Assembly (NCBI GenBank): GCA_024222475.1 | Contig: JAAEPA010000698.1 | Location: 1-46,518, forward strand | Reading direction: 5' to 3' | Origin: Gammaproteobacteria bacterium | GTDB taxonomy: Bacteria > Pseudomonadota > Gammaproteobacteria > JAAEPA01 | DNA length: 46,518 nt | Part shown: positions 13,054 to 37,123 of the stretch, piece by piece | Layout: each line of letters starts with the position of its first letter | Position numbering within the stretch: position 1 is the stretch's first letter | Translations under genes and position numbers: made by a program | The notes under the pieces: model-generated | Databases searched by the model: none | The model's input: only the letters and a program-made list of their open reading frames with translations | Told to the model about the DNA's origin: nothing

Positions 13054-13083
13054 TTGACAAAGCTCTTACCGAGTTATTATTGT
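13054..13083 (+). promoter_or_regulatory. candidate sigma70 promoter for the cytochrome/nrfCD/fccAB operon
   Basis: Perfect TTGACA at 13054-13059. It is followed by TATTAT (15-nt spacer) or TATTGT (18-nt spacer). This would give a leader of about 375 nt. Confidence 0.3.
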
Positions 13084-13459
13084 TACACCCAACGAGCCCG
13101 GAATCGCCATTGATGGCGGGGTGATCGCGCTAGGGCTTAGGCTAATTTGCGATCATGGTATAAGCATAAAAACGAATAATAATAACTAGAAAAGAATATA
13201 GAGGAGTGCCGTCTCAATGGGAACCCACTGCAATCAGCTTGCCAAGCACATTTCTACGATACCAGCGCCGCATATAAAAACGCGGACTATTCCCTGTGGT
13301 ACGTTTGGGTCGAAACGGCACAAGACCTGACTCAGATCAGCACCATGGCCGATACCCAGAGAGATGCTCATTGCGAAAAGGCGGATTCCGGGTCAAGGAT
13401 CATGGATAACCGCTCAACAAACCCCTGACTTTTAATAAGCCGATTCGAGGGAAAGACAG

Positions 13460-13966
13460 ATGAACCCATCGCCAAGAGCGCACATCTATCGAATGATTCT
13501 TGCGCTGATCGTCTTTTTAGCAGCCTTTATAGGGATCAGGGCCTTAGCCATCCCGGGTAGTTGGGATAGTGAACGTTGGTACCGCACGGATTCTCTAGGC
13601 GAATTGCAATCACTACCGCTTCGTTACGGGGGTAACGAGTCCTGCGACACCGCAGGTTGTCATGACCCGAAAGATGAGACAGCACGCCACCAAGAAAAAC
13701 TTTCCGCACTGGCATTAGGTCCACATGAGGGGCTAGCTTGCGAGGTTTGCCATGGCCCGGTGGCTGACCACGTCAAGGACGGCAAGAAGGTCAATGAGGC
13801 CAAAGTCACGGTAGCCAATGACCTCTGTATGAGTTGTCACCAAAAGCTTATTGGCCGCCCGGATCAATTCGCCCAGTTTAGCGAGACTCTGATCTATCAC
13901 AAGTTGCTGAATGTGCGTGAAAGATCGCTATGCCGAGCTTGTCACGATCCCCATGAACCCAAATAG
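13460..13966 (+). CDS. membrane-anchored tetrahaem cytochrome c
   Basis: 168-aa ORF with an N-terminal hydrophobic anchor (MILALIVFLAAFIGIRALAI). Four haem motifs: CDTAGCH (CX4CH), CEVCH, CMSCH and CRACH. Confidence 0.8.
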   Translation: MNPSPRAHIYRMILALIVFLAAFIGIRALAIPGSWDSERWYRTDSLGELQSLPLRYGGNESCDTAGCHDPKDETARHQEKLSALALGPHEGLACEVCHGPVADHVKDGKKVNEAKVTVANDLCMSCHQKLIGRPDQFAQFSETLIYHKLLNVRERSLCRACHDPHEPK

Positions 13967-13989
13967 TCACGGTGCTGCGAGGAGAAAAA

Positions 13990-14766
13990 ATGGCTAACCC
14001 TGAAGTGGACGGAAGAAGGGTATTCCTGAAAAAATTGCTGGGTGGGACCGCAGCCGCCAGCGCGGGTGTGCTGTTGGTGTACAAACAACCCGCGTCGGCC
14101 AAGCCGTCGGCTGCACGAAAGCAAGACGGCGAGGCGCATGAACAACAGTATGCCTTCGTGGTGGACATCGACCGCTGTATCGGCTGCGGCAACTGCGTCT
14201 CCGCCTGCAGCACCGAAAACAAGGTACCACAAGGCCAGTTCCGAACCTGGGTCGAGCGCTATGTGGTCACCCAGGAAGGCGTGCACATCGACTCTCCCAA
14301 AGGGGGCATGGAGGGCTTCCCAGAACTTGATGAGACACTCGAGAAACAGGCCATCAATTCATTTTTTGTGCCTAAGTTATGCAATCAATGCGAAGACGCC
14401 CCTTGCGTGCAGGTATGCCCCGTAGGCGCAACCTACCGCTCCGATGACGGTTTTGTATTAGTCGACCCGGAACACTGCATGGCTTGCAGCTACTGCATCC
14501 AGGCCTGCCCCTATGGAGCCAGATTCATGAATAAAGAAACACACATGGCCGATAAGTGCACCTGGTGCTATCACCGAGTCAAAAATGACAAATTACCGGC
14601 CTGCGTCACCGTCTGCCCCACCCATGCGCGCAGCTTCGGCGATCTGAATGACAGCGCCAGCCAGGTGGCACAGGTGGTTCAATCGGACCATTGGGATACT
14701 TTGAAATCAGATCTGCACACGGGATGTCAAGTACTGTACTCCGGCCTGCCCAGAGAGGTGGTTTAA
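13990..14766 (+). CDS. Tat-exported 4x[4Fe-4S] ferredoxin subunit, NrfC/PsrB/DsrO family
   Basis: Twin-arginine motif GRRVFLKKL. Four Cys clusters: CIGCGNCVSAC, CNQCEDAPCVQVCP, CMACSYCIQACP and CTWC...CVTVCP. The ATG at 13990 with a GAGGAG Shine-Dalgarno is preferred over the GTG at 13972. Confidence 0.88.
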   Translation: MANPEVDGRRVFLKKLLGGTAAASAGVLLVYKQPASAKPSAARKQDGEAHEQQYAFVVDIDRCIGCGNCVSACSTENKVPQGQFRTWVERYVVTQEGVHIDSPKGGMEGFPELDETLEKQAINSFFVPKLCNQCEDAPCVQVCPVGATYRSDDGFVLVDPEHCMACSYCIQACPYGARFMNKETHMADKCTWCYHRVKNDKLPACVTVCPTHARSFGDLNDSASQVAQVVQSDHWDTLKSDLHTGCQVLYSGLPREVV

Positions 14767-14767
14767 G

Positions 14768-15949
14768 ATGACACTGCCTAACGAATCGTTGGTTAATTTC
14801 ATATTTCCCAACAACGCTCATATTGACTGGTCATTGATGATCGTGATCTACCCCTATATCACGGGCTTGGTTGCCGGTGCATTCGTGGTGTCATCGCTTT
14901 ATCACGTTTTCAAAATCAAGGAATTTGAACCTGTTGCACGATTTGCCTTGATTAGCGCTTTTTGCTTCGGTTTATTCGCAGCATTTCCGCTGCTGGTCCA
15001 TCTGGGGCAACCCCAGCGGGCCTTCAACATCTTTTTCACCACCCATACGACCTCGGCCATGAGTATCTTTGGCTACGTCTATGGCAGCTACATGATCCTA
15101 TTGATCGTTGAACTCTGGCTAACCTACCGGGAATATTTTATTCAACGCGCCAATGAAACCACCGGCATCCCGCGGCTGATTTGGAGCACGCTGACCCTGG
15201 GGATAATGACCTATACGCCAGACTCTGCGCGCGTCGATCATAGGCTCAGCACCTTCCTGGCCGCTATCGGTATCCCCTGGGCCTGCACCCTGCATGGCTA
15301 TGTCGGATTCATCTTCGGCACGGTAAAGGCCAACGCCTGGTGGGCAACCCCCTTGCAACCCATCATCTTCCTGATGTCTGCCATCGTCAGCGGCATGGCC
15401 ATGCTGTGCGTAATGTACACCATTATCCACTGGCGAAAAGGATGGGACTATGACTATGCAATGGTCAAAAAGCTGATGGGCTTTCTGTGGGGATTTTTCA
15501 TCATTGATTTCACCTTGGAAATGTTAGAGATCATCTATGTCGCCTACGAACACGGCCATCACTGGTCCGTGGTCGGTCCGCTGCTCGGTGGGCCCTTATA
15601 CGGCAGTTTCTTTATCGGCCAGGTACTGATTCTTTCGGTTATCCCGTTTCTAATTCTGGGCTATATAGTGATCTCCCGGGTGGCGGGAAAGACCATGCTC
15701 TATCTGGCAAACATAGCCAGCCTGATGCTCGTCCTACAGGTGCTGGTCATGCGCTTTAATGTCGTAGTTGGGGGTCAATACATCTCCAAATCAGACCGAG
15801 GGTTCGTTGATTTCCACTTCGAATTATTTGCTAAGGAGGGCGTACTGGTGGCGGTGGCCATCCTGGCGGCCCCCTTCATCGTGTATTACATCCTGTCTAA
15901 ACTGATACCGATATTCCACCAAGATGATGTAACCAGCAGTGAAGGCTAA
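14768..15949 (+). CDS. NrfD/PsrC/DsrP-family integral membrane quinone-interacting subunit
   Basis: 393-aa ORF with about 9-10 hydrophobic segments by eye. Its ATG lies 1 nt after the stop of the FeS gene. The FeS-then-membrane-subunit order is the typical NrfC-NrfD arrangement. Confidence 0.85.
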   Translation: MTLPNESLVNFIFPNNAHIDWSLMIVIYPYITGLVAGAFVVSSLYHVFKIKEFEPVARFALISAFCFGLFAAFPLLVHLGQPQRAFNIFFTTHTTSAMSIFGYVYGSYMILLIVELWLTYREYFIQRANETTGIPRLIWSTLTLGIMTYTPDSARVDHRLSTFLAAIGIPWACTLHGYVGFIFGTVKANAWWATPLQPIIFLMSAIVSGMAMLCVMYTIIHWRKGWDYDYAMVKKLMGFLWGFFIIDFTLEMLEIIYVAYEHGHHWSVVGPLLGGPLYGSFFIGQVLILSVIPFLILGYIVISRVAGKTMLYLANIASLMLVLQVLVMRFNVVVGGQYISKSDRGFVDFHFELFAKEGVLVAVAILAAPFIVYYILSKLIPIFHQDDVTSSEG

Positions 15950-16001
15950 GCGCGAGTTCATCATGGATTATGCAAATAGACTCGAACACAGAACAGTGAC
16001 C

Positions 16002-16577
16002 ATGAAAAAAACAACGATTTGGATCGCGGTACTCTTCGCTCTGATGGTGGTTAACCCGGCGGGCGCTAACCCCATCCCCTCCTCCACCCTGTCAAACAAT
16101 TGCGCCGGTTGCCATGGCACCTATGGCTACAGCACGGAGCCCATGCCTATCATTGCCGGGCTCCCCGCGGCCTATTTCAGCCGGATCATGCGCCAATTCC
16201 AGAACGGAAAACGCCCCTCGACCATCATGGGGCGGCTTGCCAGGGGATACAGTGAAAGCGAACTCGATGATATGGCCGCTTTTTTTGCCTCACAAAGATG
16301 GAAATCTCCAGCCCAAGAGGTCGACAATACCATGGTCCTCAAGGGAGGAAAGATCCATGAAGAGAAATGTAAGGTCTGCCATAAAAACAAGGGCAGATAC
16401 CAGGATGATGTTACACCAAGAATAGCCGGGCAGTGGCTAGAATACCTGAAAATCAGCCTGCAGGAATACTCGCGAAGCGACCGAAAGATGCCGCATTATT
16501 TCATGACTACCATATCTAACACTCTGAGCTCCAAGGATATCACTGCATTGGCCCATTTTTATGCCAATGAAAGATGA
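16002..16577 (+). CDS. fccA: flavocytochrome c sulfide dehydrogenase, dihaem cytochrome c subunit
   Basis: Signal peptide MKKTTIWIAVLFALMVVNPAGA, two CXXCH motifs (CAGCH, CKVCH), and a position immediately upstream of fccB. The start is taken at the internal ATG at 16002. Confidence 0.8.
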   Translation: MKKTTIWIAVLFALMVVNPAGANPIPSSTLSNNCAGCHGTYGYSTEPMPIIAGLPAAYFSRIMRQFQNGKRPSTIMGRLARGYSESELDDMAAFFASQRWKSPAQEVDNTMVLKGGKIHEEKCKVCHKNKGRYQDDVTPRIAGQWLEYLKISLQEYSRSDRKMPHYFMTTISNTLSSKDITALAHFYANER

Positions 16578-16634
16578 TAATGGCTGAATTTTTTATTGCG
16601 CCATTCCTCAGTGAACACATAAGGTAAGCTGATC

Positions 16635-17921
16635 GTGACCCATATCACTCGCAGAGATTTCGTCAAATACTTAGCAGGCACCGCCGGTCTAGGCTCGGCT
16701 GCTTACTCACCGCTTAGCCACGCCGTTAAATACCAAGCTCGCGTGATTATCATCGGCGGCGGTTACGGGGGGGCAACGGTAGCCAAGTACATGCGCTTGG
16801 CCAATCCCCATGTCGAAGTCATACTCATTGAAAAAAAGCAACAGTATACTTCCTGCGCCCTAAGCAATGAGATTTTGACCCGGGAACGCACCATGGATAG
16901 CCTGACCTTCAACTACGATGGTCTTAAAAATTTCTATGGTGTGCGAGTGATGCATGACGAGGCCACCGAGATCGAACCCGTTAAGAAACAGGTGGTGACC
17001 CGTGGGGGTCAAACCCTGGATTACGATCGGCTGGTCGTCTCCCCAGGTGTAGCATTTCGCTGGGATGCCATCGAGGGTTATAACAAAGCGGCGAGCAAAG
17101 TCATGCCCCACGCCTGGTTTGCAGGTGAACAAACCCTGCTACTGCGGCGCCAACTAGAAGCGATGGATGATGGTGGACGAGTAATTATCGTTGCCCCACC
17201 CAACCCTTACAAATGCCCCCCGGGTCCCTACGAACGTGCCGGACTCATTGCCCATCATTTAAAACATCACAAAAAGGATAAATCCAAGATTCAGATATTT
17301 GATGCCAAGGATAAATTCGCCAAAAAAGCCCTGTTCGAACAGGCCTGGGAGCAGCATTATCCTGGCATGATCCAATGGATCTCCGCCTCCAATGATGGCA
17401 AGGTGCAGGCCGTTGATACAAAAAAACTCGCTGTGATCACTGAATTCGACGAACATAAGGGAGCTGTGATCAATGTCATCCCTCCGCAGAAAGCGGGCCT
17501 TATTGCCGAGCAGGCCGGGTTGGCGGATGAATCCGGCTGGTGTCCGGTAAATCAGCGTACCTTTGAGTCAAGGATCCATCAGGACATCCATGTCATCGGT
17601 GATGCCTGTATCGCCGGGCCCATGCCGAAATCAGCCTATTCGGCCAATACCCAGGCCAAGGTCTGCGCCGCGGCCATCGATGCCCTGATCAGCGGCAGCC
17701 CGACACCGGAACCTTCCTATGTCAACACCTGCTACAGCATCCCCGCCCCCGGCCACGGGATCTCTGTCGCCGGCGTCTACCGGCTTGAAGGTGAGAAGAT
17801 CGTTGCGGTGAAGGGCGCGGGAGGCGTGTCACCCTTGGACGCCTCGGAGTGGGAACGTAAAATAGAGGCGGCCTATGCCCGCAGCTGGTTTAAGAACATC
17901 ACCTCGGATATCTTTTTATAA
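16635..17921 (+). CDS. fccB: flavocytochrome c sulfide dehydrogenase, FAD-binding subunit
   Basis: Tat signal ITRRDFVKYL and a GGGYGGAT dinucleotide fold. Conserved motifs: YTSC (FAD-linking Cys position), YKCPPGPYERA, GWCPV, HVIGDACIAGPMPKSAYSANTQ and NTCYS. It is colinear by eye with Allochromatium FccB. Confidence 0.92.
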   Translation: MTHITRRDFVKYLAGTAGLGSAAYSPLSHAVKYQARVIIIGGGYGGATVAKYMRLANPHVEVILIEKKQQYTSCALSNEILTRERTMDSLTFNYDGLKNFYGVRVMHDEATEIEPVKKQVVTRGGQTLDYDRLVVSPGVAFRWDAIEGYNKAASKVMPHAWFAGEQTLLLRRQLEAMDDGGRVIIVAPPNPYKCPPGPYERAGLIAHHLKHHKKDKSKIQIFDAKDKFAKKALFEQAWEQHYPGMIQWISASNDGKVQAVDTKKLAVITEFDEHKGAVINVIPPQKAGLIAEQAGLADESGWCPVNQRTFESRIHQDIHVIGDACIAGPMPKSAYSANTQAKVCAAAIDALISGSPTPEPSYVNTCYSIPAPGHGISVAGVYRLEGEKIVAVKGAGGVSPLDASEWERKIEAAYARSWFKNITSDIFL

Positions 17922-19206: not shown

Positions 19207-20955
19207 CTAGGACCTGTCATCCAGTCGCCGTAACTGTCCCATGACATTTTCCCGGGCACGGCAATCCGGACACTGCTTTAGCCTTTCCAACCCCCCACCC
19301 TGAAAATGTGGATTGTCCTTGAGACGTTCGGTCATCAGTTCAACGATCGCCTTGGTAGTGAAGGGGCTGCCGCAGCTGGTACAGTGAAAGGGAGGAGACT
19401 CGACCAGGATACGCGGCTTCTCGCGTGCGATTAAGTCAAACAACAGCCGTGGAATTCGCTCAATGGCTTGTTCCGGACAGGCGGCGGCACAGAGACCACA
19501 CTGCAGACATAAGGCATGCACAAAGCCGAGTTTTGGCTGGGTAACATCTCCGGCACTGCGCACAGCCGTGGTGGGACATACCTTGACGCAGCCCATGCAT
19601 AAGGTGCATTTTTGCTGATCGATGTCTAACTCGCCAAAGGGAGCGCCAGAGGCCAGTTCCACCTTGTCTTGGGTCTGAGAGGCGGCGCGGATAAGATGCA
19701 CGAGGGCCCTTTCGATAGTATTGCGTTTGTTGTTTGAGGCGTTGAAATCCGCCACGCCCAATGATGGATAGCGTGTGATGTCTGAAAACGCATGTTCCAG
19801 TGTAAATTCTTCCCTTCCTTCTATCAGACGCAAGCGCTGCGCATCGTAGCCCATACCAACCAGCATACGCCGCGCATGATCCAATTGCCGGCACAGTTGC
19901 TCCACGGTGTGCTGAACATGGGTCTTCCCGGTCATCAATATAACACTACCGGCCCCCCAGGCCAGGGCCGCGAACCAGGTTTCGATACCTGCGGTGCCAA
20001 GTTCCTGCAGCCTGACGGGGATTATCCAAGCAGCCAACGCCCCTCTTATCACATTCAGCCTCTCATCGTCCAGGTGGTGATCATAAAGCAAAAGACAGGG
20101 ATCATGGACGTCCTCAGAGATATCTTTTAACACGACTCGTAGTCGTTGCAGTGGTGTTGGAGGTAATTCGGGGTTCGGGGATAAGGCGCCACTGGGGCAA
20201 GTCAGCATACAGGTTCCACACCCCTGACAAAGGTAGGGATCGACGACTATTCGATCATTATCAGAGGAAATAGCCCCGGCGGGGCAGACGTCGAGACAGG
20301 CGCGGCATCCCTTGATACCGTAGCGCTGATGGGCACATAGAGAGGTTTGGTATTTAAAAAATTTAGGTTTTTTAAAAACACCTACCAACGCCGACAACCC
20401 AACCATGGCGCGCTGTAATGCATTGCGGTCACTACCAGGCGCATAATAACCCAAAGGAGTCACCTGAAGAGGCAGATAGGGTTGCTCTGCAAGATCTAAT
20501 ATTATATCGAATCGCTCTCTGTGCTCCGAACACAACAATGCCGGATTCAAAGGGCCCTCTTTACCCTCAATCCGAACCTCGAATTGGCCAAGAAAACCCG
20601 CGAGGCTTAACAGCTTTCCCTGAAGACAAACGATACCCTCTGGAGGTGGTAATGTTAAAGACAGATTCGTGATCAATACGACCACATCCATCTTTTGCTT
20701 ATTGAGCACACGTCCTAATTCAACGGTACGCCGGTCTTGACCGACAACCAACACGCAGCCCCGAGACTCATAAGTCACCAAGGCGTCGGCAACAAGCTGA
20801 TCTTCGGGCAGTGGATAGCGTAAAACCGCAGGGATCGATGAATGGTTTTGGTTCTTCATGTTGCCAAGGATAACAGACAAAAGGCCCACGCCTATTGAGC
20901 AAACGGCCTGTTCCAGTCTTAGTTTATCTAACCCGGATGGGATAAAATATTCCAT
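19207..20955 (-). CDS. 582-aa polyferredoxin (two 2x[4Fe-4S] ferredoxin domains) with a C-terminal CxxC...CxxC ribbon
   Basis: Cluster motifs CRACLDVCP, CQGCGTCMLTCP, CTLCMGCVKVCP and CLQCGLCAAACP. The C-terminus has FHCTSCG...CPDCR. An alternative start is the ATG at 20859. Confidence 0.8.
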   Translation of the reverse strand: MEYFIPSGLDKLRLEQAVCSIGVGLLSVILGNMKNQNHSSIPAVLRYPLPEDQLVADALVTYESRGCVLVVGQDRRTVELGRVLNKQKMDVVVLITNLSLTLPPPEGIVCLQGKLLSLAGFLGQFEVRIEGKEGPLNPALLCSEHRERFDIILDLAEQPYLPLQVTPLGYYAPGSDRNALQRAMVGLSALVGVFKKPKFFKYQTSLCAHQRYGIKGCRACLDVCPAGAISSDNDRIVVDPYLCQGCGTCMLTCPSGALSPNPELPPTPLQRLRVVLKDISEDVHDPCLLLYDHHLDDERLNVIRGALAAWIIPVRLQELGTAGIETWFAALAWGAGSVILMTGKTHVQHTVEQLCRQLDHARRMLVGMGYDAQRLRLIEGREEFTLEHAFSDITRYPSLGVADFNASNNKRNTIERALVHLIRAASQTQDKVELASGAPFGELDIDQQKCTLCMGCVKVCPTTAVRSAGDVTQPKLGFVHALCLQCGLCAAACPEQAIERIPRLLFDLIAREKPRILVESPPFHCTSCGSPFTTKAIVELMTERLKDNPHFQGGGLERLKQCPDCRARENVMGQLRRLDDRS

Positions 20956-21090: not shown

Positions 21091-22062
21091 ATGAAACGCT
21101 TTAATAATATTCTGATTTGTGGGCACCCGGATCGGGTCGATCTGAAATTACTTGAGCACGCTGCCGAAATCGCCAAGGCCCACCAGGCGAGAATCAAAGT
21201 CGTTCATACCATCACGGATTACCCCAAGGACGTTAGAACCTGGTGGAACGTGCGCAACCCGGGGATGCTGCGTGACAAGATCATTCGTGAACGCGAAGAG
21301 TTTTTAGATGGGCTGGTGGAAAGCCTTGAAACACTCGGTGTGGAGAGGATTTCGAAAGATCTGTTATGGGGTGAGCCCGCCGTGGAAATCACCAAGCAAG
21401 TGCTCCATGATCAGCACGACTTGGTCATGCTGGTCTCCAAACACCGGGGCAAGGCCAGCCACAGTATCCACGGCTACCCTTCCATGGACCTGCTTCGGCA
21501 ATGCCCCAGCCCCATCTGGATCACTAAGAAAAAGGTCAAACCGCGTAAGCACCGTGTCGTCGCCTGTTTGGGCGGCAGTGGCGGGGAGGTCAAGATCGCA
21601 GATACCAATGCCAAGATTCTGGACCATGCGGCAACTGTGGCCAGAGCCCAAGGCAGTGAGATACAGATCATCCACGTCATGCCCCATTACGGCGACCAAA
21701 AAAAGGTTGAGAAACATCAACTCAACCACGACCTAACCGCCTATCTGGACAATGTCCGTGCAGAGATCAAGATCCGCGCCAATGAATTTCTTGCCGAATA
21801 CGACAGCTCGATCGATGATGCCCAGGTACATATCTTGATAGGCACACCAACGACCGTGATTCCTGAGTTCATTGAATTAAAAGGCGCCGATCTAGTCGTC
21901 ATGGCCACTGCGGCTCGCTCCGGCCTACCTGGCATGATCGTCGGTAATGCCGCGGAAAAGGTACTAAAAAGGATCAGCTGCCCCTTGCTGGTGGTAAAAT
22001 CAGATAGCTTCAATGCCCAATTTAATACTAAGGAAGCAGAGGAGAATTCGTCAACGGCATGA
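21091..22062 (+). CDS. tandem-domain universal stress protein (UspE-like), paralogue 2
   Basis: 323-aa ORF colinear with 18123-19097 (for example YPKD..WWNVR.P..LR and DLVVMATAARSGLPGMIVGNAAEKVLKRISCPLLVVK). Confidence 0.85.
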   Translation: MKRFNNILICGHPDRVDLKLLEHAAEIAKAHQARIKVVHTITDYPKDVRTWWNVRNPGMLRDKIIREREEFLDGLVESLETLGVERISKDLLWGEPAVEITKQVLHDQHDLVMLVSKHRGKASHSIHGYPSMDLLRQCPSPIWITKKKVKPRKHRVVACLGGSGGEVKIADTNAKILDHAATVARAQGSEIQIIHVMPHYGDQKKVEKHQLNHDLTAYLDNVRAEIKIRANEFLAEYDSSIDDAQVHILIGTPTTVIPEFIELKGADLVVMATAARSGLPGMIVGNAAEKVLKRISCPLLVVKSDSFNAQFNTKEAEENSSTA

Positions 22063-25223: not shown

Positions 25224-26645
25224 TTAGGGTATGACTTTCCAGAAAGGTTTAGCCTGTAGTTTGTATAAAAAGGCATAGTGCAGAGCCTTTTTCATCCATG
25301 CTCCGGCCAATCCTACTTCCATGGCACTGTGGTCCACGGCCCGTCCATATTCAGGAAACGCCGCCTTATTACGGACGATGGGCTGTAGCCCAATGGTAGC
25401 TGCCGAACCGGATAGCCAGGAATTTTTCAAAGAAGCGACACACATGCCAGGGGTTTCCGCCAAAGAGGCCGTATGACAAGGCGCGCGCCCTTCGATCATC
25501 TCAGAGATATTCAAGGCCGCGGCACCACCGGTTAATTCAGAAGTATAGCCTGTCCTGGGAATAGCAGGTATCAACTGAGTACCGGTGGGCGTCGTGCAGG
25601 GTTCTGATATGCATCCTGGGGGGGCGAAGGCAATCCCGCAAGCGAAGACATTCTCATATACCGGGCTCTGATAGGTCTTTGGCCAATCTTGTGCGGTGAG
25701 TTCCGGGTAGCTCTTTCCGTAATTGGCATCCACCTTGACGAATCCGGCAGGGTTACACATCTTATCCTTTATGTCATTGCCGTTTTTGTCTAGATACTTG
25801 AAGGGCTGCCCTGTAAACCTTGGGATGAGCATGGCGTAATCAAACTCGAATTCCTTGTATTCACCCGCCTTATTTTCAGTATAGATGGTCCTCTCTTCGA
25901 TCTTATGGATGTGACTGCCGACTTCCACCTTGATATCGAAATCCTCGAATAGGGCGGTCGCCATATCCTCAGAGGTAAAGGTGACTGGCCCCATCTTCAT
26001 TTCAAACCCATCAATGCCGAAATCTCCGGGGCGCGGCTCATTGGATAGCCACAACATCTCCGCGCGATCTCGCAGCCCCCTATCCTTGAGGTTATTGTGT
26101 AGCAGTGAGATGTACTCAAAGGCTGCACCCTGGCAGGTACACATTCCATGGCCCGTACCGACTACGATTTTAGCTCTCTCACCCTTCTCAAGTCTGTCCA
26201 CAAGGGCCAGGTATTGTTGGGCTGTGTCGGTGGCGTGAGGAGGGGTGCAGATTGAGTGAGTAAAGCCCTTTTCGGGGCCAAGACCCGGCGTCGCCTCGAA
26301 ATCGAGTTTAGGTCCGGTGGCAATGATCAAATAATCGTAATCAAGCTGCGTCGGTTTGTCATTCACCTCGACAATGACATGATTATCATCGGGGTGAACC
26401 TCTGTCAATTTACCGAGAACAAGGTTGATCCCAAGCTTATCGCAGACCGGTTGCAGTTCGAATTGGGTCTTTTCCACCGGGATCTGGCCGATACCCACCC
26501 AAACCAGGGAGGGGATATAGGTGAATTTGGGATGAAGGTTGACGAGCGTGATCTCGTGATCACCCTTTTTCTTCAGTGCATCTTGCAGGACTAATGCGGC
26601 AAAATGCCCGGAAAAGCCCGCACCGATAATGACGGTTTTAGCCAT
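25224..26645 (-). CDS. sqr: sulfide:quinone oxidoreductase, long form (length suggests type VI/SqrF-like; not verified)
   Basis: N-terminal IIGAGFSGH FAD fold. SQR-type redox Cys contexts are present: GMCTCQGAAFEY (the C-x-G-A-A-x-E motif) and PGMCVASL. An IPRTGYT loop is also present. The protein is 473 aa, against about 430 aa for type I SQR. Confidence 0.85.
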   Translation of the reverse strand: MAKTVIIGAGFSGHFAALVLQDALKKKGDHEITLVNLHPKFTYIPSLVWVGIGQIPVEKTQFELQPVCDKLGINLVLGKLTEVHPDDNHVIVEVNDKPTQLDYDYLIIATGPKLDFEATPGLGPEKGFTHSICTPPHATDTAQQYLALVDRLEKGERAKIVVGTGHGMCTCQGAAFEYISLLHNNLKDRGLRDRAEMLWLSNEPRPGDFGIDGFEMKMGPVTFTSEDMATALFEDFDIKVEVGSHIHKIEERTIYTENKAGEYKEFEFDYAMLIPRFTGQPFKYLDKNGNDIKDKMCNPAGFVKVDANYGKSYPELTAQDWPKTYQSPVYENVFACGIAFAPPGCISEPCTTPTGTQLIPAIPRTGYTSELTGGAAALNISEMIEGRAPCHTASLAETPGMCVASLKNSWLSGSAATIGLQPIVRNKAAFPEYGRAVDHSAMEVGLAGAWMKKALHYAFLYKLQAKPFWKVIP

Positions 26646-27294: not shown

Positions 27295-28704
27295 ATGCTA
27301 GCTATCGCTTTTGATGCTCATAGACTGATCGCGCAGCTGGACACACGATTGGACTCCGCCTTGCGTCACACAAAAGGGGCGGACCATAAGGGGATGTTAA
27401 GCGTTACCCTGGCCGTCCCTGAACTCGCCTCCCTTGAACTCACGGAACTGCCCAGAGGAGGCATCTATTGGGCCCGCCTGGAAGATCAGAGCTTTCGATT
27501 TGCTATGGGCCAAGAGGCGCTTATTCAGGCCAGTGGCGCAACACGCTTCCAGCAGCTTGAAGAAGAATTTTCCCGTCTGAGCCAAAGCTGGGTAAAACTT
27601 GATCCCGATAATTTAAACACCCCGGCACGGGCCTTCGTCGGTTTTTCCTTTTCCCCCAAAGCGAAGCAGCATAGCTGTTGGCAAGGCTTTGCCAACGCAT
27701 GCATTCTGGTACCTAGCCTGTTACTGGAACGCAAGGGCCACAGCTGCCGACTGACCTTCACATGCAATACCCTCACCGGCCCCGACCGGGATGAGATAAG
27801 GCGCGGATGGTTGCGCCAAGCCCTGAACCTATTCGTAGAAGTCACGGGGTTTTCCACGCCTTACGATTCCCTCAAACCCCTGGATCGGATCGAAGACATC
27901 CCGAGCGAAAGTGAATGGCTGGCGCGAGTACACAAGGTCCTGAAAGCCATCGAAGAAGGACGTCTGGAAAAAGTGGTCCTAACCCGTCGGGTCCGAGTTA
28001 GAAGCCATCAGCCCCTGCGGCCCGCCCGCTCATTATCTTGGCTATCATCGCGTCATTCCAGTGGCGTACAGTTTGCCTATGCCTCCGCCAATGCGACCTT
28101 GGTAGGCGCATCTCCCGAACGGCTGGTCAGCTTGCAAGGCGACAAGATCATATGTGACGCCGTGGCGGGAACGGCCTGCCGACACCCCCTAGCGGACCAG
28201 GATCGCAACCTCGGGCTAGCACTCCTTGCAGATAACAAAGCACGGCATGAACAAGATCTAGTGGTCAACTCCATCATCCAATCGCTGGATCCCTTGTGCA
28301 CCAGTCTGAGTGCGCCAGTGGAACCCCAATTATTGAAATCCTCCAAGATCCAGCATTTATGGAGTCCTATCCATGGTCGAGTTAAATCGGAAATATCGCT
28401 GCTCGATCTCGCCTCGAAACTTCATCCCACACCCGCGGTCGGAGGGACACCATATCAACAGGCCATAAGCTGGCTAGAGGAACATGAGACCGGTCAACGG
28501 GGCTGGTACACCGGCGCACTGGGCTGGATGGCCACCGATGGAAGTGGCGAGCTGGCGGTTATTTTGCGCTGCGCCCTATTACGAAATAATGTCGCCGATC
28601 TATTCGCCGGAGCAGGTATCGTAGGGGATTCCAACCCCGAAGACGAACTCGCCGAAACGGAATGGAAGCTGCGCACCATGCTGGATGCCCTAGCCGTCGT
28701 CTGA
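27295..28704 (+). CDS. menF: isochorismate synthase (menaquinone-specific)
   Basis: 469-aa ORF with chorismate-binding-enzyme C-terminal motifs (LHPTPAVGGTP, GWYTGALGW, AVILRCAL, GAGIVGDSNPEDE). It lies immediately upstream of menD. Confidence 0.9.
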   Translation: MLAIAFDAHRLIAQLDTRLDSALRHTKGADHKGMLSVTLAVPELASLELTELPRGGIYWARLEDQSFRFAMGQEALIQASGATRFQQLEEEFSRLSQSWVKLDPDNLNTPARAFVGFSFSPKAKQHSCWQGFANACILVPSLLLERKGHSCRLTFTCNTLTGPDRDEIRRGWLRQALNLFVEVTGFSTPYDSLKPLDRIEDIPSESEWLARVHKVLKAIEEGRLEKVVLTRRVRVRSHQPLRPARSLSWLSSRHSSGVQFAYASANATLVGASPERLVSLQGDKIICDAVAGTACRHPLADQDRNLGLALLADNKARHEQDLVVNSIIQSLDPLCTSLSAPVEPQLLKSSKIQHLWSPIHGRVKSEISLLDLASKLHPTPAVGGTPYQQAISWLEEHETGQRGWYTGALGWMATDGSGELAVILRCALLRNNVADLFAGAGIVGDSNPEDELAETEWKLRTMLDALAVV

Positions 28705-28757
28705 TGCCGCAGTCTCCTTCTTCCTACTGCGCTACTCGGGTAGAGACGATCAACTAA

Positions 28758-30482
28758 ATGGGCGTAGAGCACGGAGAACTGAATCTGATCTGGTGCGCCG
28801 CCCTGGTAGAAGGACTGGTTAGGAACGGTGTTCACTATGCGGTAGCCTCACCAGGCTCGCGATCGACCCCTCTCACCCTGGCCTGCGCCCGTCACCCGGG
28901 ACTGCATCTGCGAATGCTGCCCGATGAGCGCAGTGCGGCCTTTTTCGCCCTGGGGATCAGTAAGCTCAAAAGCTCACCCGTAGCCGTGATCGCAACCTCC
29001 GGCACGGCCCCCGCCAACTGGTATCCCGCCGTCATCGAGGCCTCTTACGATTACCATTCCCTGATCATGCTCAGCGCCGACCGGCCCGCTGAATTACAGG
29101 ATTGCGGGGCGAACCAAACCATCGATCAGACTCGCATGTTCGGTGTACACGCGCGGGCCTTCCAGAACTTCCCTCCCGCTGAAGACTCACCCACTGCCCT
29201 GCTAATGGCGCAGAATATCGCCGCACGCGCCGTGGACAACAGCCGCTGGCCTATTCCCGGACCGGTACACATCAATGTCCCCCTGCGAGAACCCCTGGTA
29301 CCCAAAGGCCTTATCGCGAGTCTCCCGGGCGACGCCAACGAAATCATTCCCCGCACACATTATCCGCGGCTCAGCCCAGATCGACGGGACGTCAATGAAT
29401 TGAGCCGACGGATGTGTGCCGGCAATGGTTTGATCGTGTGTGGCAGGGCAGACTACCCGGATGGATTTGCGGAAGCGGTAGGCAAGCTGGCCGATCGGCT
29501 ACATAGCCCTATTTTGGCGGATCCCTTGTCCGGATTGCGTTTCGGAAGGCATGATCACCATTGGGTTGTTACACACTATGATGCCCTGCTTAGAGCTGAG
29601 GATATGGTGCAGGATTATCGGCCGGATTGGGTGCTAAGATTTGGCGGCATACCGACCTCAAAGTCCCTACAGCGTTTCCTCGGTGATTTGCCTCAGGACA
29701 CTATCCTGCTGGTTGTTCCTTATGGGCCCTGGCCCGACATTGAGCATAGCAGCACCGAGGTGTACCGCAGCGATCCGCTGGAGTTGTGCCACGCCTTGCT
29801 GGAAACGGGACTTCAGCCCACCCATGAGCCATGGCAGCAAACCTTGCTCGATCGGGAACGCCATGCCGCCAAGGCACTTCAGGAAATGGAAAATAAGCCC
29901 TTGGAAGCCGAGATACTCGAATCGATAATACGGCTGAGCCCTGAAGGAAGCCAACTTTTTTGCGCAAACTCCATGGTCATCAGAGACGTCGACAGCTTTG
30001 CCGACGGCGGCCAACGACATCTCCACCTGCATGGAAACCGGGGAGCAAGCGGTATCGACGGCAACGTCTCGACGGCCTTGGGCATGGCGGCGGTCGCCGA
30101 GGATCCGGTGATTGCCTTACTGGGTGATCTGACCCTTTATCACGACATGAATGGTCTGCTCGCCGCCGGAGATCTCGATATAGTCATGGTAGTCTTTAAC
30201 AATGGCGGCGGTGCCATCTTCGGTTATCTGCCCCAGGCAGCATTGCCTGAATTCGAGGCTTGTTGGCTCACTCCGCCAGGTTTAGATATCGCTCAAATTG
30301 CCCAACTTTATGGCTTGAACTTCCATCGGGTATGGGATAAAAAGCAATTCACCAAGGCTTTAAAGTCCGCTATCAATACCCCTGGTGCGGACATGATCGA
30401 GGTAATAATCGATCGTGAAGACAGCCTCCGGCTCCATAGGGCCTACTGGGAAATCATCAGCCGCAAACTCCAGTACGAATAA
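28758..30482 (+). CDS. menD: 2-succinyl-5-enolpyruvyl-6-hydroxy-3-cyclohexene-1-carboxylate synthase
   Basis: 574-aa ThDP enzyme with a MenD-type N-terminus (NLIWCAALVEGLVRNGVHYAVASPGSRSTPL) and a GDLTLYHDMNGL ThDP motif. Confidence 0.93.
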   Translation: MGVEHGELNLIWCAALVEGLVRNGVHYAVASPGSRSTPLTLACARHPGLHLRMLPDERSAAFFALGISKLKSSPVAVIATSGTAPANWYPAVIEASYDYHSLIMLSADRPAELQDCGANQTIDQTRMFGVHARAFQNFPPAEDSPTALLMAQNIAARAVDNSRWPIPGPVHINVPLREPLVPKGLIASLPGDANEIIPRTHYPRLSPDRRDVNELSRRMCAGNGLIVCGRADYPDGFAEAVGKLADRLHSPILADPLSGLRFGRHDHHWVVTHYDALLRAEDMVQDYRPDWVLRFGGIPTSKSLQRFLGDLPQDTILLVVPYGPWPDIEHSSTEVYRSDPLELCHALLETGLQPTHEPWQQTLLDRERHAAKALQEMENKPLEAEILESIIRLSPEGSQLFCANSMVIRDVDSFADGGQRHLHLHGNRGASGIDGNVSTALGMAAVAEDPVIALLGDLTLYHDMNGLLAAGDLDIVMVVFNNGGGAIFGYLPQAALPEFEACWLTPPGLDIAQIAQLYGLNFHRVWDKKQFTKALKSAINTPGADMIEVIIDREDSLRLHRAYWEIISRKLQYE

Positions 30483-30512
30483 TTAACTTTAACCGTCAAC
30501 CATAAACCGATC

Positions 30513-31334
30513 ATGATCTGGACCTCCATTACCGAATTCGATTTTCGAGATATCCTTTATCACCAGGCCGATGGTATCGCCAAGATCACCATCAACCGGC
30601 CCGAGGTACGCAACGCCTTCCGCCCCGAAACCATAAATGAACTGATTCAGGCCTTCACTCATGCCCACATTGACCAGGACATCGGGGCCATTATTCTAAC
30701 CGGTGCGGGTGAACTGGCGTTCTGCTCGGGAGGAGACCAGAAAGTGCGAGGAACCCACGGCGGCTACAAAGACGCCCAAGGCGTGCAACATCTCAATGTG
30801 CTGGACCTGCAGATGCAGATCCGCCGACTACCGAAACCAGTGGTCGCCATGGTGGCCGGATATGCCATCGGCGGTGGTCATGTACTGCACCTGGTATGCG
30901 ATCTCAGCATCGCTGCGGACAATGCACGATTTGGCCAGACCGGACCACGGGTAGGCAGTTTCGATGCCGGACTCGGTACCGGACTGCTGGCCCGCACCGT
31001 GGGAATCAAAAAGGCCAAAGAGATCTGGTTTCTATGCCGTCAGTATTCAGCCCAGGAGGCCCTGCAGATGGGTCTGGTCAATACCGTGGTACCCTTGGAT
31101 CGCTTGGAAGAGGAGACCGTCGGGTGGTGTAAAGAGATGCTGAAACTGAGCCCAACGGCCTTGCGTTCCCTCAAGGCCGCATTCAATGCCGATACCGATG
31201 GCCTCGCCGGCATCCAGGAACTTGCCGGTAATGCCACGGCCCTGTTCTATATGTCTGCTGAGGCCCAAGAGGGCCGTGATGCCTGGCTAGAGAAACGCCC
31301 CGCAGATTTCAGTAAGTTTCCGCGTCGGCTTTAG
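30513..31334 (+). CDS. menB: 1,4-dihydroxy-2-naphthoyl-CoA synthase
   Basis: 273-aa crotonase-fold protein with MenB motifs ([63 protein letters not shown]). Confidence 0.95.
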
Positions 31335-31466
31335 CCCCCCCTATTTTTCAGCACTGGGGTCGTAATCTAGCAATACCCTGCCCTCGGCCACCCTCTTCTG
31401 TAGCAAGTAACAGGACCGGTTGATAGCAATCACGTCACCCACTTGAACTTATTGTTTGGTGAGAAT

Positions 31467-31751
31467 ATGAAAATTTTGATGCGTAATCTGTCCCGGGATA
31501 CGACAGAAGCCGAGCTGCTTACCTTATTCAAAAAGTATGGGGATGTGCAGTACTGCAAGTTGGTGACAGATAAAGCAACGGGCAAGTCCAAGGGCTTTGG
31601 TTTTGTTGAAATGCCCCGTGCCGGTGAGGCCAAGGCGGCCATCAAGGGGCTTAATTTCCAGGATATCAGCGGTAATAGAATTCGGGTGAAAAAGGTGGCA
31701 AAGCATAAGGAAGGTACCGCTGAAAACAATTCAGAGGAGCCCGACGCTTGA
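31467..31751 (+). CDS. small RRM-type RNA-binding protein
   Basis: RNP2 ILMRNL and RNP1 KGFGFVEM motifs. The ATG at 31467 has a GGTGAG Shine-Dalgarno. Confidence 0.85.
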   Translation: MKILMRNLSRDTTEAELLTLFKKYGDVQYCKLVTDKATGKSKGFGFVEMPRAGEAKAAIKGLNFQDISGNRIRVKKVAKHKEGTAENNSEEPDA

Positions 31752-31785
31752 TCAATCGCAATGAATTCGTAAATCGGGTGGCAAC

Positions 31786-32019
31786 ATGAGTGATCTCCAG
31801 CCCAATAACCCCCTGCATGGCGTAACACTGGAGATGATCCTTACGCGCCTAGTAGAACACTATGGTTGGGAGGAACTGGGGCAAGCCATCAACATCAAAT
31901 GTTTTAATCATGAACCAAGCATAAAATCGAGCCTAAAGTTCCTGCGAAGGACCCCCTGGGCCAGAGATAAAGTTGAAGCCTTGTATTTGCGAACTCTGGG
32001 GTCAAGGTCAAGAGATTGA
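31786..32019 (+). CDS. VF530/DUF2132 family putative DNA-binding protein
   Basis: 77-aa ORF with [24 protein letters not shown]...[24 protein letters not shown], which is typical of DUF2132. Confidence 0.8.
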
Positions 32020-32078
32020 ATCTCGCGACTCTCCCCTGCCGAACCCAGCCCAACCGATATGCTGACGCTTCCTTATGG

Positions 32079-32252
32079 GGCAAACCCGGCGAACTGGAAG
32101 AAACAATTACTGAGGTAACTGCAATGCACCCTATTGGACGCTTTGGCAAAGCAGAGGAAGTTGCATCAGCTGTCACCTGGCTATGCTCAGAAGATGCTTC
32201 TTATGTCTTGGGTCAAAGCCTCACATTTGATGGTGGATTTACGGCAATCTAA
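32079..32252 (+). pseudogene. 3'-terminal fragment of a short-chain dehydrogenase/reductase gene
   Basis: Only the last roughly 55 codons of an SDR are present (HPIGRFGKAEEVASAVTWLCSEDASYVLGQSLTFDGGFTAI). There is no Rossmann or catalytic part upstream. Confidence 0.7.
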
Positions 32253-32262
32253 CTCATGCGCG

Positions 32263-32294
32263 TTTCTCCGCTGTGCAGTACCACAACGGAGAAA
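32263..32294 (+). other. 13-bp stem hairpin immediately after the SDR fragment
   Basis: tttctccgctgtg pairs with cacaacggagaaa at 12 of 13 positions, with a 6-nt loop. The motif gcggagaaac recurs at 32521-32530. Confidence 0.35.
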
Positions 32295-32342
32295 TGCCTG
32301 ATCTCACTTGGCCCGACATTTCGGTTAACACAGATATCAAAT

Positions 32343-32476
32343 GGCTATGTCGCCGTTAAATATTGAAATTCATCTCTACGCATGCAAGTCATTGATTTTA
32401 CAAGAATTACAAAAATATAACGGGCAAAGTAAAATCAATCACTTAGGGTATTTCAACACCTAACGGTGACATAGCT
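32343..32476. mobile_element. F-family MITE (134-bp imperfect palindrome) with an 8-bp target-site duplication
   Basis: Terminal inverted repeats ggctatgtcgccgtta and taacggtgacatagct match at 14 of 16 positions. Nested arms are ttgaaat/atttcaa and gtcattgatttta/taaaatcaatcac. A perfect direct repeat TATCAAAT lies at 32335-32342 and 32477-32484. Confidence 0.8.
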
Positions 32477-32532
32477 TATCAAATTGACACCCCCGGCTGA
32501 TTTTGGCGCGAGCCCTTAGCGCGGAGAAACAA

Positions 32533-32742
32533 CTAGCTGTCTCTCATCTCCTTAACGCGCCGGTTGAAGGTCGCTTCGTCGATGTCACCCTGGGCCAGCC
32601 GCCGCTCCAGCTCCTTGATTTGTTGTTCCGCCCAATCTTCGGGTGAGCCGGTTTTTCTGGTAAGCAACCAACGCAGGAAAAAAATACCCGGGATGATCAT
32701 GGCCAACCCGATAGCCGCTTTGGTAAATTGGTCTTCCATCAT
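32533..32742 (-). CDS. small membrane protein with a SHOCT-like C-terminal domain
   Basis: 69-aa ORF with one hydrophobic helix (AAIGLAMIIPGIFFLRWLL) followed by IKELERRLAQGDIDEATFNRRVKEM. Confidence 0.65.
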   Translation of the reverse strand: MMEDQFTKAAIGLAMIIPGIFFLRWLLTRKTGSPEDWAEQQIKELERRLAQGDIDEATFNRRVKEMRDS

Positions 32743-32784
32743 ATTGCGATTGTATGCCCCACAAGCGTGCTATTTCAACTACTC

Positions 32785-33055
32785 CTGCAATAAGGTTAAC
32801 CAGCATCACCACGGACAATGCACAATTTGCCCAAACCGGACTACGGATAGGCAGTTTTGATGCCGGATTGCCGACCCGCTATACAGTGGGGGTCAAAAAA
32901 GCCAAAGAAATCTAGTTTCCATGCCGATGGCCTCGCCGGTATCCAGGATACTGGCCGGTAATGTCACAGCCCTGGCTATATGCTGAGACCCAAGAGAGCC
33001 GTGACGCCTGGTTTGAGAAATGTCCTGCTGATTTCAGTAAGTTTCCGCATAGACT
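32785..33055 (+). pseudogene. decayed duplicate of the menB 3' end
   Basis: 32813-32870 is about 85% identical by eye to 30917-30975. 32925-33055 matches 31195-31334, including the agtaagtttccgc tail. About 150 nt are deleted internally. TGG is changed to TAG at 32913-32915 in the menB frame. Confidence 0.85.
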
Positions 33056-33229
33056 ACAGGATCTGTTGGTATTGGAAGAGACCTCAGGTTGACAGCTGAC
33101 ACTTTACCGTTGAGGATATCGAGGCTCATCCCCGGAGCAAGCAGTTATTCAATAATAATGGGGATTGGTCCAATAACCTTTTATATTTACTAAGCAAACA
33201 CAACCCTGTAAACCGTTCCGACTAAACCC

Positions 33230-36975: not shown

Positions 36976-37123
36976 CGAATGAATTTTCCGGGCGCCTAGC
37001 ACGCCGCCTTTGCCGTATAGCGACGTTGGAACACGAAAGCCATAGTAAAGACTATGCCTTACGCGTTCTGCCTTGCTCTACGACAAATTCGACGCACTCT
37101 GCACTCCTGAAAACCCATCCGTT

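Follow-up and report, generated by a model that had tools for sequence, protein, structure and literature searches.

The stretch of DNA analysed here, called the window below, comprises 46,518 nt of contig JAAEPA010000698.1 from the Gammaproteobacteria bacterium assembly GCA_024222475.1. Between positions 13,460 and 17,921 it carries five genes on the forward strand. The first three, which we refer to as the triad, encode a membrane-anchored tetrahaem cytochrome c, an NrfC-type iron-sulfur (Fe-S) protein and an NrfD-family membrane subunit; the last two, fccA and fccB, encode the subunits of a flavocytochrome c sulfide dehydrogenase (FCSD). The open reading frame (ORF) track places the five ORFs at 13460-13966, 13972-14766, 14768-15949, 15939-16577 and 16635-17921 of the + strand. 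As the start of nrfC we chose ATG 13990, which has GAGGAG just 5' of it and lies 23 nt from the tetrahaem gene. The ATG of nrfD follows 1 nt past the nrfC stop, fccA was started at ATG 16002, which opens the signal peptide MKKTTIWIAVLF and leaves a gap of 52 nt after nrfD, and fccB starts at GTG 16635, 57 nt after fccA. A first-pass annotation, made from the sequence without database searches, had described five tightly packed same-strand genes with gaps of 23, 1, 52 and 57 nt; the ORFs, the GAGGAG site and the signal peptide show its refined starts to be sensible.

The tetrahaem cytochrome (13460..13966, + strand, 168 aa) has a transmembrane helix at residues 13-31 followed by four haem sites, three of which are CXXCH. 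Its Pfam matches, to Cytochrom_c3_2 and Paired_CXXCH, are weak, and no convincing relative was found by sequence among solved structures. The anchor and the four haem sites had been recognised in the first pass and both stand, with the correction that site 1 is a CX4CH motif (CDTAGCH) and not CXXCH. The second gene (13990..14766, + strand; from 13972 in the ORF track) encodes an NrfC/DsrO/TtrB-type periplasmic Fe-S protein (Fer4_11, E 1e-27). Its four cysteine groups hold 16 cysteines in total, enough for four [4Fe-4S] clusters, and it carries the twin-arginine motif GRRVFLKK, in agreement with the four-cluster protein exported by the twin-arginine translocation (Tat) pathway that had been proposed. 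The NCBIfam matches of this protein, to TtrB (top), DsrO and NrfC, all lie below the cut-offs, and its best match in the PDB is PsrB (2vpw_B). The third gene (14768..15949, + strand) encodes a 393-aa NrfD-family integral membrane subunit (PF03916, E 1e-33) with about 9-10 helices and without cofactor motifs, which is presumed to provide the predicted quinone/quinol site. The AlphaFold2 model of this subunit (predicted TM-score 0.80) has nine long helices plus short ones, and the best Foldseek matches of the model are ActC of alternative complex III (ACIII), a 10-helix protein, with TM-scores of 0.69-0.74; PsrC matches less well. Single-sequence and profile searches with NrfD against the PDB sequences returned nothing, its relatives coming from fold comparison alone, and the identity to characterised QrcD and ActC, at 15%, is too low for reliable residue alignment. 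The Pfam family, the model and the superposition on ActC all fit the membrane protein of about 10 helices that had been read from the sequence.

FccA (16002..16577, + strand; from 15939 in the ORF track) is a dihaem cytochrome c with a hydrophobic N-terminus and two CXXCH motifs, and its matches to 3vrd_A (E 1e-33) and 1fcd_C (E 1e-29) cover the whole mature chain. FccB (16635..17921, + strand) contains the domains PF21706 (FCSD_central, E 6e-49) and PF09242 (FCSD-flav_bind, E 5e-28) and matches the flavoproteins of known FCSD structures (5n1t_A, 3vrd_B and 1fcd_A) along its whole length, with E 1e-142 to 1e-128. In the alignment to 1fcd_A, from Allochromatium vinosum, the catalytic cysteines are all intact: C74 (YTSC), C194 (YKCPPG) and C366 (NTCYS). 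We take these to be the equivalents of A. vinosum Cys42, Cys161 and Cys337, presumably the cysteine of the 8-alpha-S-cysteinyl FAD bond and the redox-active cysteine pair. Three sequence contexts had been offered for these residues in the first pass, of which YTSC and YKCPPG hold. The third, GDACIAG, does not: its cysteine, C325, is aligned with Ser in A. vinosum and is therefore not a redox cysteine, the third catalytic residue being C366. Both subunits are full-length, have no extra domains and are 54-58% identical to soluble FCSDs. By its domains, its three cysteines and the adjoining dihaem gene the window FccAB fits a flavocytochrome c sulfide dehydrogenase, and its identification as a canonical one is confirmed by the Pfam domains and the full-length matches to solved enzymes. 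It can be aligned over its full length with FccAB of A. vinosum (1FCD) and Thermochromatium tepidum (3VRD), with which it has in common the FAD-Cys, the disulfide Cys, the Tat signal and the dihaem subunit. What sets it apart is its genetic setting. Canonical FccAB is soluble and its genes are not described beside an NrfC/NrfD pair (NrfCD), whereas here fccAB follows nrfD in one operon and FccA is fused to the tetrahaem cytochrome in relatives.

Whether the linkage of triad and fccAB is conserved in other genomes had been set as a test of the first-pass proposal, and we find that it is. The linked set consists of the window and 14 related loci, with probably a 15th in Beggiatoa sp. IS2, from uncultured bacteria throughout, and within it the linkage survives both rearrangement and gene fusion. 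NrfD identity in the linked loci ranges from 69-97% and FccB identity from 54-94%, and three arrangements occur: all genes on the same strand, divergent genes, and a tetrahaem-FccA gene fusion followed by fccB. A genome scan with NrfD gave nine loci, all from uncultured Gammaproteobacteria (NrfD 74-97%) and all with the five genes in the same order, and a metagenome scan with an NrfD alignment gave 80 further loci, down to 38% identity. The order cyt-nrfC-nrfD-fccA-fccB is seen in the loci that we number L001-L009, L015, L099 and L100. Of the 13 loci with an NrfD identity of 69% or more, 12 have fccB beside the triad; of the 51 informative loci at 68% or less, none has. The single exception in the upper range is Beggiatoa sp. 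IS2, where the contig stops 851 nt past nrfD. The last 42 nt of this triad contig overlap, with 93% identity, the first 42 nt of a contig carrying fccA-fccB-usp-usp, and the locus is probably continuous, with a DUF302 gene between the triad and fccAB. A reciprocal survey that started from FccB gave an indirect sign of the same association, in that at least 15 of the best FccB matches lie on a contig of the same length as that of an NrfD match or NrfD locus and so seem to share it, and the full five-gene cluster is present in two loci derived from FccB (FccB identity 70% and 66%). Because it recurs across many independent assemblies, the arrangement is far beyond chance.

The loci in which the gene order has changed are the most informative about the partners within the cluster. 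In L096 the cluster is divergent, with fccA-fccB-DUF302 on the strand opposite cyt-nrfC-nrfD-usp-polyferredoxin. In L097 nrfD is followed by a gene for one protein of 372 aa, a tetrahaem::FccA fusion. Its residues 1-167 correspond to the anchored tetrahaem cytochrome (45% identity), including the membrane helix and the CX4CH motif, and after an Ala/Thr/Pro-rich linker its residues ~197-371 correspond to FccA (41% identity), without the FccA signal peptide; fccB begins 10 nt after the fusion gene. A second fusion sequence, P0122 (73% identity), has a separate origin: it stems from a JGI metagenome, P0121 from an NCBI assembly. In Thiobacillus-type loci the tetrahaem is instead fused to three FccA-like dihaem modules. 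The first haem motif follows the partner: all 16 Fcc-linked loci have CX4CH, the Thiobacillus type has CX3CH and 52 others have CXXCH. Taken together, the fusion, the partner-specific change in the haem motif and a linkage that withstands rearrangement make it likely that FccA and the anchored cytochrome are connected functionally and probably also physically. The first pass had put forward a functional tie between FccAB and the cytochrome/NrfC/NrfD module. This idea gains support from four sides (conserved linkage, rearrangement, the tetrahaem::FccA fusion and CX4CH), and we are fairly confident that the two would be coupled in some way. In the full-text literature we did not find a linkage of an NrfD/NrfC/ActC module with fccAB or FCSD described, a mention in subscription-only articles being possible; papers on SAR324 and Thiocapsa that use both terms handle the NrfCD-type proteins and FCSD separately. 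What is new here is the partner of an FCSD and, seen from the other side, the catalytic head of an NrfCD module.

The composition of the triad is conserved, as the linkage is, but it is not peculiar to this operon: the triad is a widespread module that usually has other cytochrome partners. Together with its own tetrahaem cytochrome it is kept in 53 of 58 informative distant loci, down to an NrfD identity of 38%, where its partners are octahaem or multihaem cytochromes, giant multihaem cytochromes among them, and where some triads have no downstream partner. In a sister clade with 43-50% NrfD identity (L019, L020, L021, L027, L033, L036, L037 and L040) the triad is followed by an octahaem HAO-family cytochrome of ~528 aa, which in these eight loci is accompanied by a conserved protein of ~217 aa without a Pfam match. 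Eleven loci have a DUF2339-like membrane protein (550-606 aa) 3' of the triad. We also took a census of 115 immediate same-strand neighbours from ~85 loci, assigned with Pfam and counted for families matched by at least two neighbours. It is dominated by c-type cytochrome, FCSD and octahaem families, and no molybdopterin family is among those matched by at least two of the 115 neighbours, families with a single member not being fully listed. Nor is there a molybdopterin gene in the window operon or beside it, as had been stated in the first pass, which had also asked whether relatives of the triad stand next to one. These results bear on the reading that the triad is the remnant of a psr/ttr-type operon that lacks its catalytic subunit and lies beside fccAB by accident. 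The TtrB and PsrB matches of the NrfC protein would be expected from such a remnant. Among the neighbour families counted, though, cytochromes take the place of molybdopterin subunits, the triad persists with its own tetrahaem at great distance, and all three of its genes are intact; we therefore reject a molybdoenzyme remnant as a candidate and regard this reading as effectively refuted, with a negligible chance of being right.

FccAB had been described as the only catalytic partner encoded in the operon. It is the only intact one, but an octahaem gene was formerly part of the locus. In a tblastn search with the 429-aa octahaem cytochrome of the closest relative, L001, its residues 382-429 match the window at 13273..13416 (+ strand), where the final ~48 codons of a gene for an HAO-family octahaem cytochrome are left. 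The intact gene of L001 (L001:229-1518, PF13447) lies directly 5' of the tetrahaem gene and heads the operon. Nucleotide homology between the two loci starts at L001:1375, which is window position 13276, and since the window is unrelated to L001 upstream of this point the octahaem gene was lost by deletion or replacement. Between fccA and fccB, L001 also carries (L001:4688-4853) a 90%-identical copy of an element of ~166 nt that lies at 36964-37129 in the window, there between genes for a PD-(D/E)XK nuclease and a UvrD-like helicase; the element has a weak self-match on the opposite strand and looks like a small palindromic mobile or repeat element.

Homologues of FccAB and of the module are found in other combinations as well. 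In L101 (L101:3256-8278) fccA-fccB is preceded, at a distance of 3 nt, by an octahaem HAO-family gene whose product shares 57% identity with the octahaem of L001; a NapC/NirT tetrahaem is close by and NrfCD is absent. This is a second recurrent association of octahaem and FccAB, and it possibly couples sulfide oxidation to nitrite/hydroxylamine turnover. In L103 (L103:2589-8763) fccAB (FccB identity 62%) follows, in a same-strand row, genes for an MtrA/NrfB-like decahaem cytochrome and an MtrB/PioB-like outer-membrane porin. Extra monohaem cytochromes are part of this row and NrfCD is absent from it, which suggests that sulfide oxidation is connected here to a conduit for electrons in the outer membrane. 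The gene that precedes nrfC in the beta-type loci and in L097 is for a type III sulfide:quinone oxidoreductase (SQR). This SQR belongs to the selenoprotein subtype (score 556 bits, cut-off 525), has CBS domains at its C-terminus and lacks a signal peptide. The loci with the order SQR-nrfC-nrfD-fusion cytochrome are L010:5508-11273, L098:5482-11317 and L097:5403-11661. The Thiobacillus-type cytochrome, a protein of ~695 aa made up of the tetrahaem and the three FccA-like modules, belongs to a cluster that in L010 lies beside selA and selB and that looks like a separate, uncharacterised sulfide-linked membrane system. Across these loci, this branch of the module is repeatedly tied to sulfide-oxidising flavoproteins, and multihaem electron-transfer partners repeatedly surround this branch of FccAB.

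Several further genes accompany the cluster. A tandem-domain universal stress protein (Usp, PF00582; 18123..19097, + strand) is co-conserved in nearly all linked loci: by tblastn its gene lies directly 3' of fccB in L002-L009, L015, L099, L100 and L102 and 3' of nrfD in L096. A 582-aa polyferredoxin-like protein with Fer4 families (19207..20955, - strand) is of uncertain membership in the system; its homologues adjoin the cluster in L002, L096, L097 and L099, though not always in the same orientation. In the window this gene is flanked by the Usp gene just named and by a second tandem-domain Usp gene at 21091-22062. A DUF302 gene recurs near the triad or fccAB at varying positions (L095:6889-7461, L096:3227-3805, L099:2665-3243) and is absent from the window. 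A separate SQR gene had been noted at 25224-26645 (- strand), and it is genuine, as its product is a nearly full-length match to the SQR structures of Acidithiobacillus ferrooxidans and Aquifex (E 1e-40 and 1e-29); its score with the NCBIfam type III model is far below the cut-off. Menaquinone-type genes at 27295-34126, 9 kb 3' of the operon, encode a MenF-like chorismate-binding protein, a MenD-like protein dependent on thiamine pyrophosphate (TPP), a MenB-like protein of the enoyl-CoA hydratase family and a UbiA-family prenyltransferase, whose gene may be menA. These genes bear on the choice of quinone by the NrfD module. Scans for promoters and terminators yielded nothing beyond what shuffled sequences give, and they neither support nor contradict a single transcript; within 580 nt upstream of the operon a consensus scan picked out a weak sigma-70-like promoter candidate (TTGACA-18-TATTGT, 13054..13083, + strand, 10/12 matches). 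An Rfam scan of the window returned one tRNA and nothing else.

In composition the triad is the same as two modules known from elsewhere. Cbc4 of Geobacter sulfurreducens (CbcS/CbcT/CbcU) consists of an anchored tetrahaem cytochrome, a protein with 4 x [4Fe-4S] and a membrane subunit without cofactors, and the 'DsrOhPh-tetrahaem' locus of cable bacteria, called a 'candidate alternative complex III' and likened to the triad here by its description, has been reported in Gamma- and Betaproteobacterial sulfur oxidisers. For both, a transfer of electrons from quinol to periplasmic cytochromes has been proposed, and no FccAB partner has been described. By its description CbcS differs from the window tetrahaem in the first haem motif, as all four of its motifs are CXXCH and the window protein begins with CX4CH. 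By sequence the operon belongs with the NrfD/PsrC-NrfC modules, as it encodes a PF03916 polytopic protein and an adjacent Tat-exported four-cluster protein. We considered several better-known members of this group and rejected each as the identity of the window system. For DsrMKJOP the scores are below threshold (DsrO 171 bits against 200, DsrP 42 against 350) and no dsrMKJ genes are nearby, and for Psr/Ttr/Phs-type enzymes (CISM) the operon has no molybdopterin subunit. The likeness to ACIII (ActABCDEF) lies in the NrfD model, which superposes best on ActC. ACIII differs in its molybdopterin-like ActB fusion, ActF, pentahaem ActA, ActD and ActE, all absent from the window locus, and we rejected membership as the NrfC protein has 264 aa with the FeS domain only, nrfD is a single gene and the cytochrome has four haems. 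NrfABCD and MccACD also connect a periplasmic catalytic protein through an NrfC/NrfD pair to the quinone pool, Nrf adding the multihaem NrfB in between. In these, however, electrons run from quinol to a reductase, whereas the window encodes a dehydrogenase flavoprotein, and its scores with the NrfC and NrfD equivalog models are far below the cut-offs.

QrcABCD of sulfate reducers is the model for the direction of electron flow that we favour. In this complex a periplasmic multihaem cytochrome with NrfC- and NrfD-like subunits takes up periplasmic electrons and reduces menaquinone electrogenically (PMC6303296). Qrc differs from the window system in its molybdopterin-like QrcB, its hexahaem QrcA and its donor, a cytochrome c3 at ~-300 mV. 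Subunit composition and sub-threshold equivalog scores led us to reject membership: the window system is not QrcABCD, with 98 bits against 400 for QrcC, 29 against 570 for QrcD and no QrcB-like gene. SQR shares with the proposed system its net reaction and, with FccB, its flavoprotein superfamily. SQR reduces quinone directly, as a single monotopic flavoprotein, whereas the proposed system would employ ten metal cofactors and an integral membrane subunit.

The reading we favour is that FccAB would be the catalytic head of a membrane-attached chain in which electrons flow from sulfide to quinone, and we hold it tentatively, at close to an even chance. Sulfide would be oxidised at the FAD and Cys-disulfide site of FccB, and the electrons would pass through the two haems of FccA and the four of the cytochrome with the N-terminal anchor, then through the four [4Fe-4S] clusters of the NrfC-like protein exported by Tat, and finally to a quinone bound to the NrfD-like subunit at its periplasmic face. 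With this operon sulfide would have a second, multi-subunit route to quinone beside the single-subunit SQR at 25224-26645. We favour this direction because FccAB supplies electrons for which the window and 13 of the 14 linked loci surveyed encode no candidate sink other than the module. Elsewhere, too, the partners of FccAB are sinks: the octahaem with NapC/NirT of L101 and the MtrA/MtrB-type conduit of L103 both fit FccAB as the source and its partner as the sink. Systems that combine a dehydrogenase with NrfCD, such as Qrc and Hyd-2, reduce quinone, in the case of Qrc electrogenically. Transfer from sulfide to quinone is downhill overall, the potentials being ~-270 mV for S0/HS-, ~-74 mV for menaquinone and ~+100 mV for ubiquinone. 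With c-type, octahaem and multihaem cytochromes as its neighbours, the triad may serve as a plug-in quinone module for periplasmic cytochrome enzymes. We infer a physical complex and flow from sulfide to quinone, and the step may be electrogenic as in QrcABCD. That the five proteins form a new multi-subunit electrogenic sulfide:quinone oxidoreductase, with FccAB docked, and in some lineages fused, to the anchored tetrahaem-NrfCD module and with cytoplasmic proton uptake as in Qrc, is a stronger proposal, drawn by analogy, and one that we consider rather unlikely. The haem potentials known for FCSD lie above that of menaquinone, and strong energy conservation is therefore doubtful if the cofactors here have potentials like those in A. 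vinosum FCSD.

A number of points weigh against flow from sulfide to quinone, and most of them speak at the same time for the main rival, in which the assembly is the same and the flow is reversed. Tetrahaem-NrfCD would then be a (mena)quinol dehydrogenase that feeds periplasmic cytochromes, and FccA would be a junction at which electrons derived from quinol and from FccB merge before they reach a periplasmic acceptor, for which the octahaem reductase of L001, a soluble cytochrome c and terminal reductases are candidates. Most characterised systems of a cytochrome with NrfCD oxidise quinol (NrfBCD, MccCD, ACIII and, putatively, Cbc4), the closest solved fold to NrfD is ActC of a quinol oxidiser, and transfer from quinol to periplasmic cytochromes is what has been proposed for both Cbc4 and the cable-bacteria module. 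The intact octahaem gene that heads the L001 operon, of which the window keeps the remnant, indicates that the module may originally have served the octahaem, and in the sister clade the triad is likewise followed by the 528-aa octahaem. The type III SQR encoded 5' of nrfC in the beta-type loci reduces quinone and would, together with a quinol-oxidising NrfCD, complete a path from SQR through quinone and NrfCD to cytochromes. The men genes of the window fit a low-potential quinol donor, and the FCSD of A. vinosum has its haems at ~+15 mV and its flavin at ~-26 mV, near 0 mV and above menaquinone; given these potentials and the men genes, delivery of electrons from FccA to menaquinone could be uphill. 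Finally, the contact between FccA and the cytochrome is a prediction from the genes, and the direction of flow is inferred in the same way. What the reversed flow leaves unaccounted for is a sink, as 13 of the 14 linked loci and the window encode none and the operon would hold two sources only. It also offers no obvious benefit in tethering or fusing FccA to a quinol dehydrogenase, and elsewhere homologues of FccAB are paired with sinks. On balance we judge the reversed flow to be possible but unlikely.

The two parts of the operon could also be co-regulated and physically independent, a soluble FccAB and a separate quinone:cytochrome c triad that are both needed under sulfidic conditions. This would agree with the solubility of canonical FccAB, with the lack of extra domains in the window FccAB and its 54-58% identity to soluble FCSDs, and with the close FccAB homologues of L101 and L103 that occur without NrfCD; contact between FccA and the module is, moreover, a prediction from the genes. 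Independence is difficult to reconcile with the tetrahaem::FccA fusion in two independent sequences, with a CX4CH motif specific to Fcc-linked tetrahaems, with a linkage that outlives rearrangement and with the short gaps between all five genes, and we think it improbable. In a further reading FccAB itself runs backwards: NrfCD and the cytochromes would carry electrons from quinol to FccB, where stored sulfur or polysulfide would be reduced to sulfide. Sulfur-storing bacteria under anoxia would then have a sulfur respiration of the Psr type in which a flavoprotein does the work of the molybdoenzyme. The architecture parallels PsrBC, with PsrB the best PDB match of the NrfC protein, the cluster is probably present in a Beggiatoa metagenome-assembled genome, and tandem Usp genes are co-conserved with it. 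Beggiatoa is known to reduce stored sulfur under anoxia. The reaction would run uphill from menaquinol by ~190 mV, however, the window FccB is indistinguishable in sequence from oxidative FCSDs, and we know of no FCSD that has been shown to act as a reductase, all of which makes this reading very improbable. Flow from sulfide to quinone through a membrane-attached FccAB remains the reading that we prefer.

The first-pass annotation took FccAB to be a soluble enzyme, which is correct for the canonical ones but not universal. Membrane-bound FCSDs have reportedly been found in Thiobacillus sp. W5 (attributed to Visser 1997) and in Ectothiorhodospira vacuolata (attributed to Kostanjevecki 2000), and for neither does a membrane partner appear to have been identified. 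The FCSD activity of these two organisms fractionates with the membrane and is a precedent for a non-soluble FCSD. Reviews and recent genome papers present FccAB as a soluble side route, with knock-outs that oxidise sulfide normally, a 2024 Beggiatoa paper still calls FCSD soluble, and the physiological role and the in vivo electron acceptor of FccAB have been in question for decades. The operon and the fusion described here give a concrete candidate acceptor for FccAB in at least one lineage, and their linkage offers a possible explanation of membrane-bound FCSD activities. They also provide the first candidate partner for a subclade of the very widespread tetrahaem-NrfCD module of the Cbc4/'candidate ACIII' type. 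If the five proteins did form an electrogenic complex, FccAB would have a defined acceptor, the old reports of membrane-bound FCSD would be explained and the sulfide oxidation step would conserve energy, unlike that of SQR; estimates of the energy yield of sulfide oxidation in these sediment and soil Gammaproteobacteria would then change.

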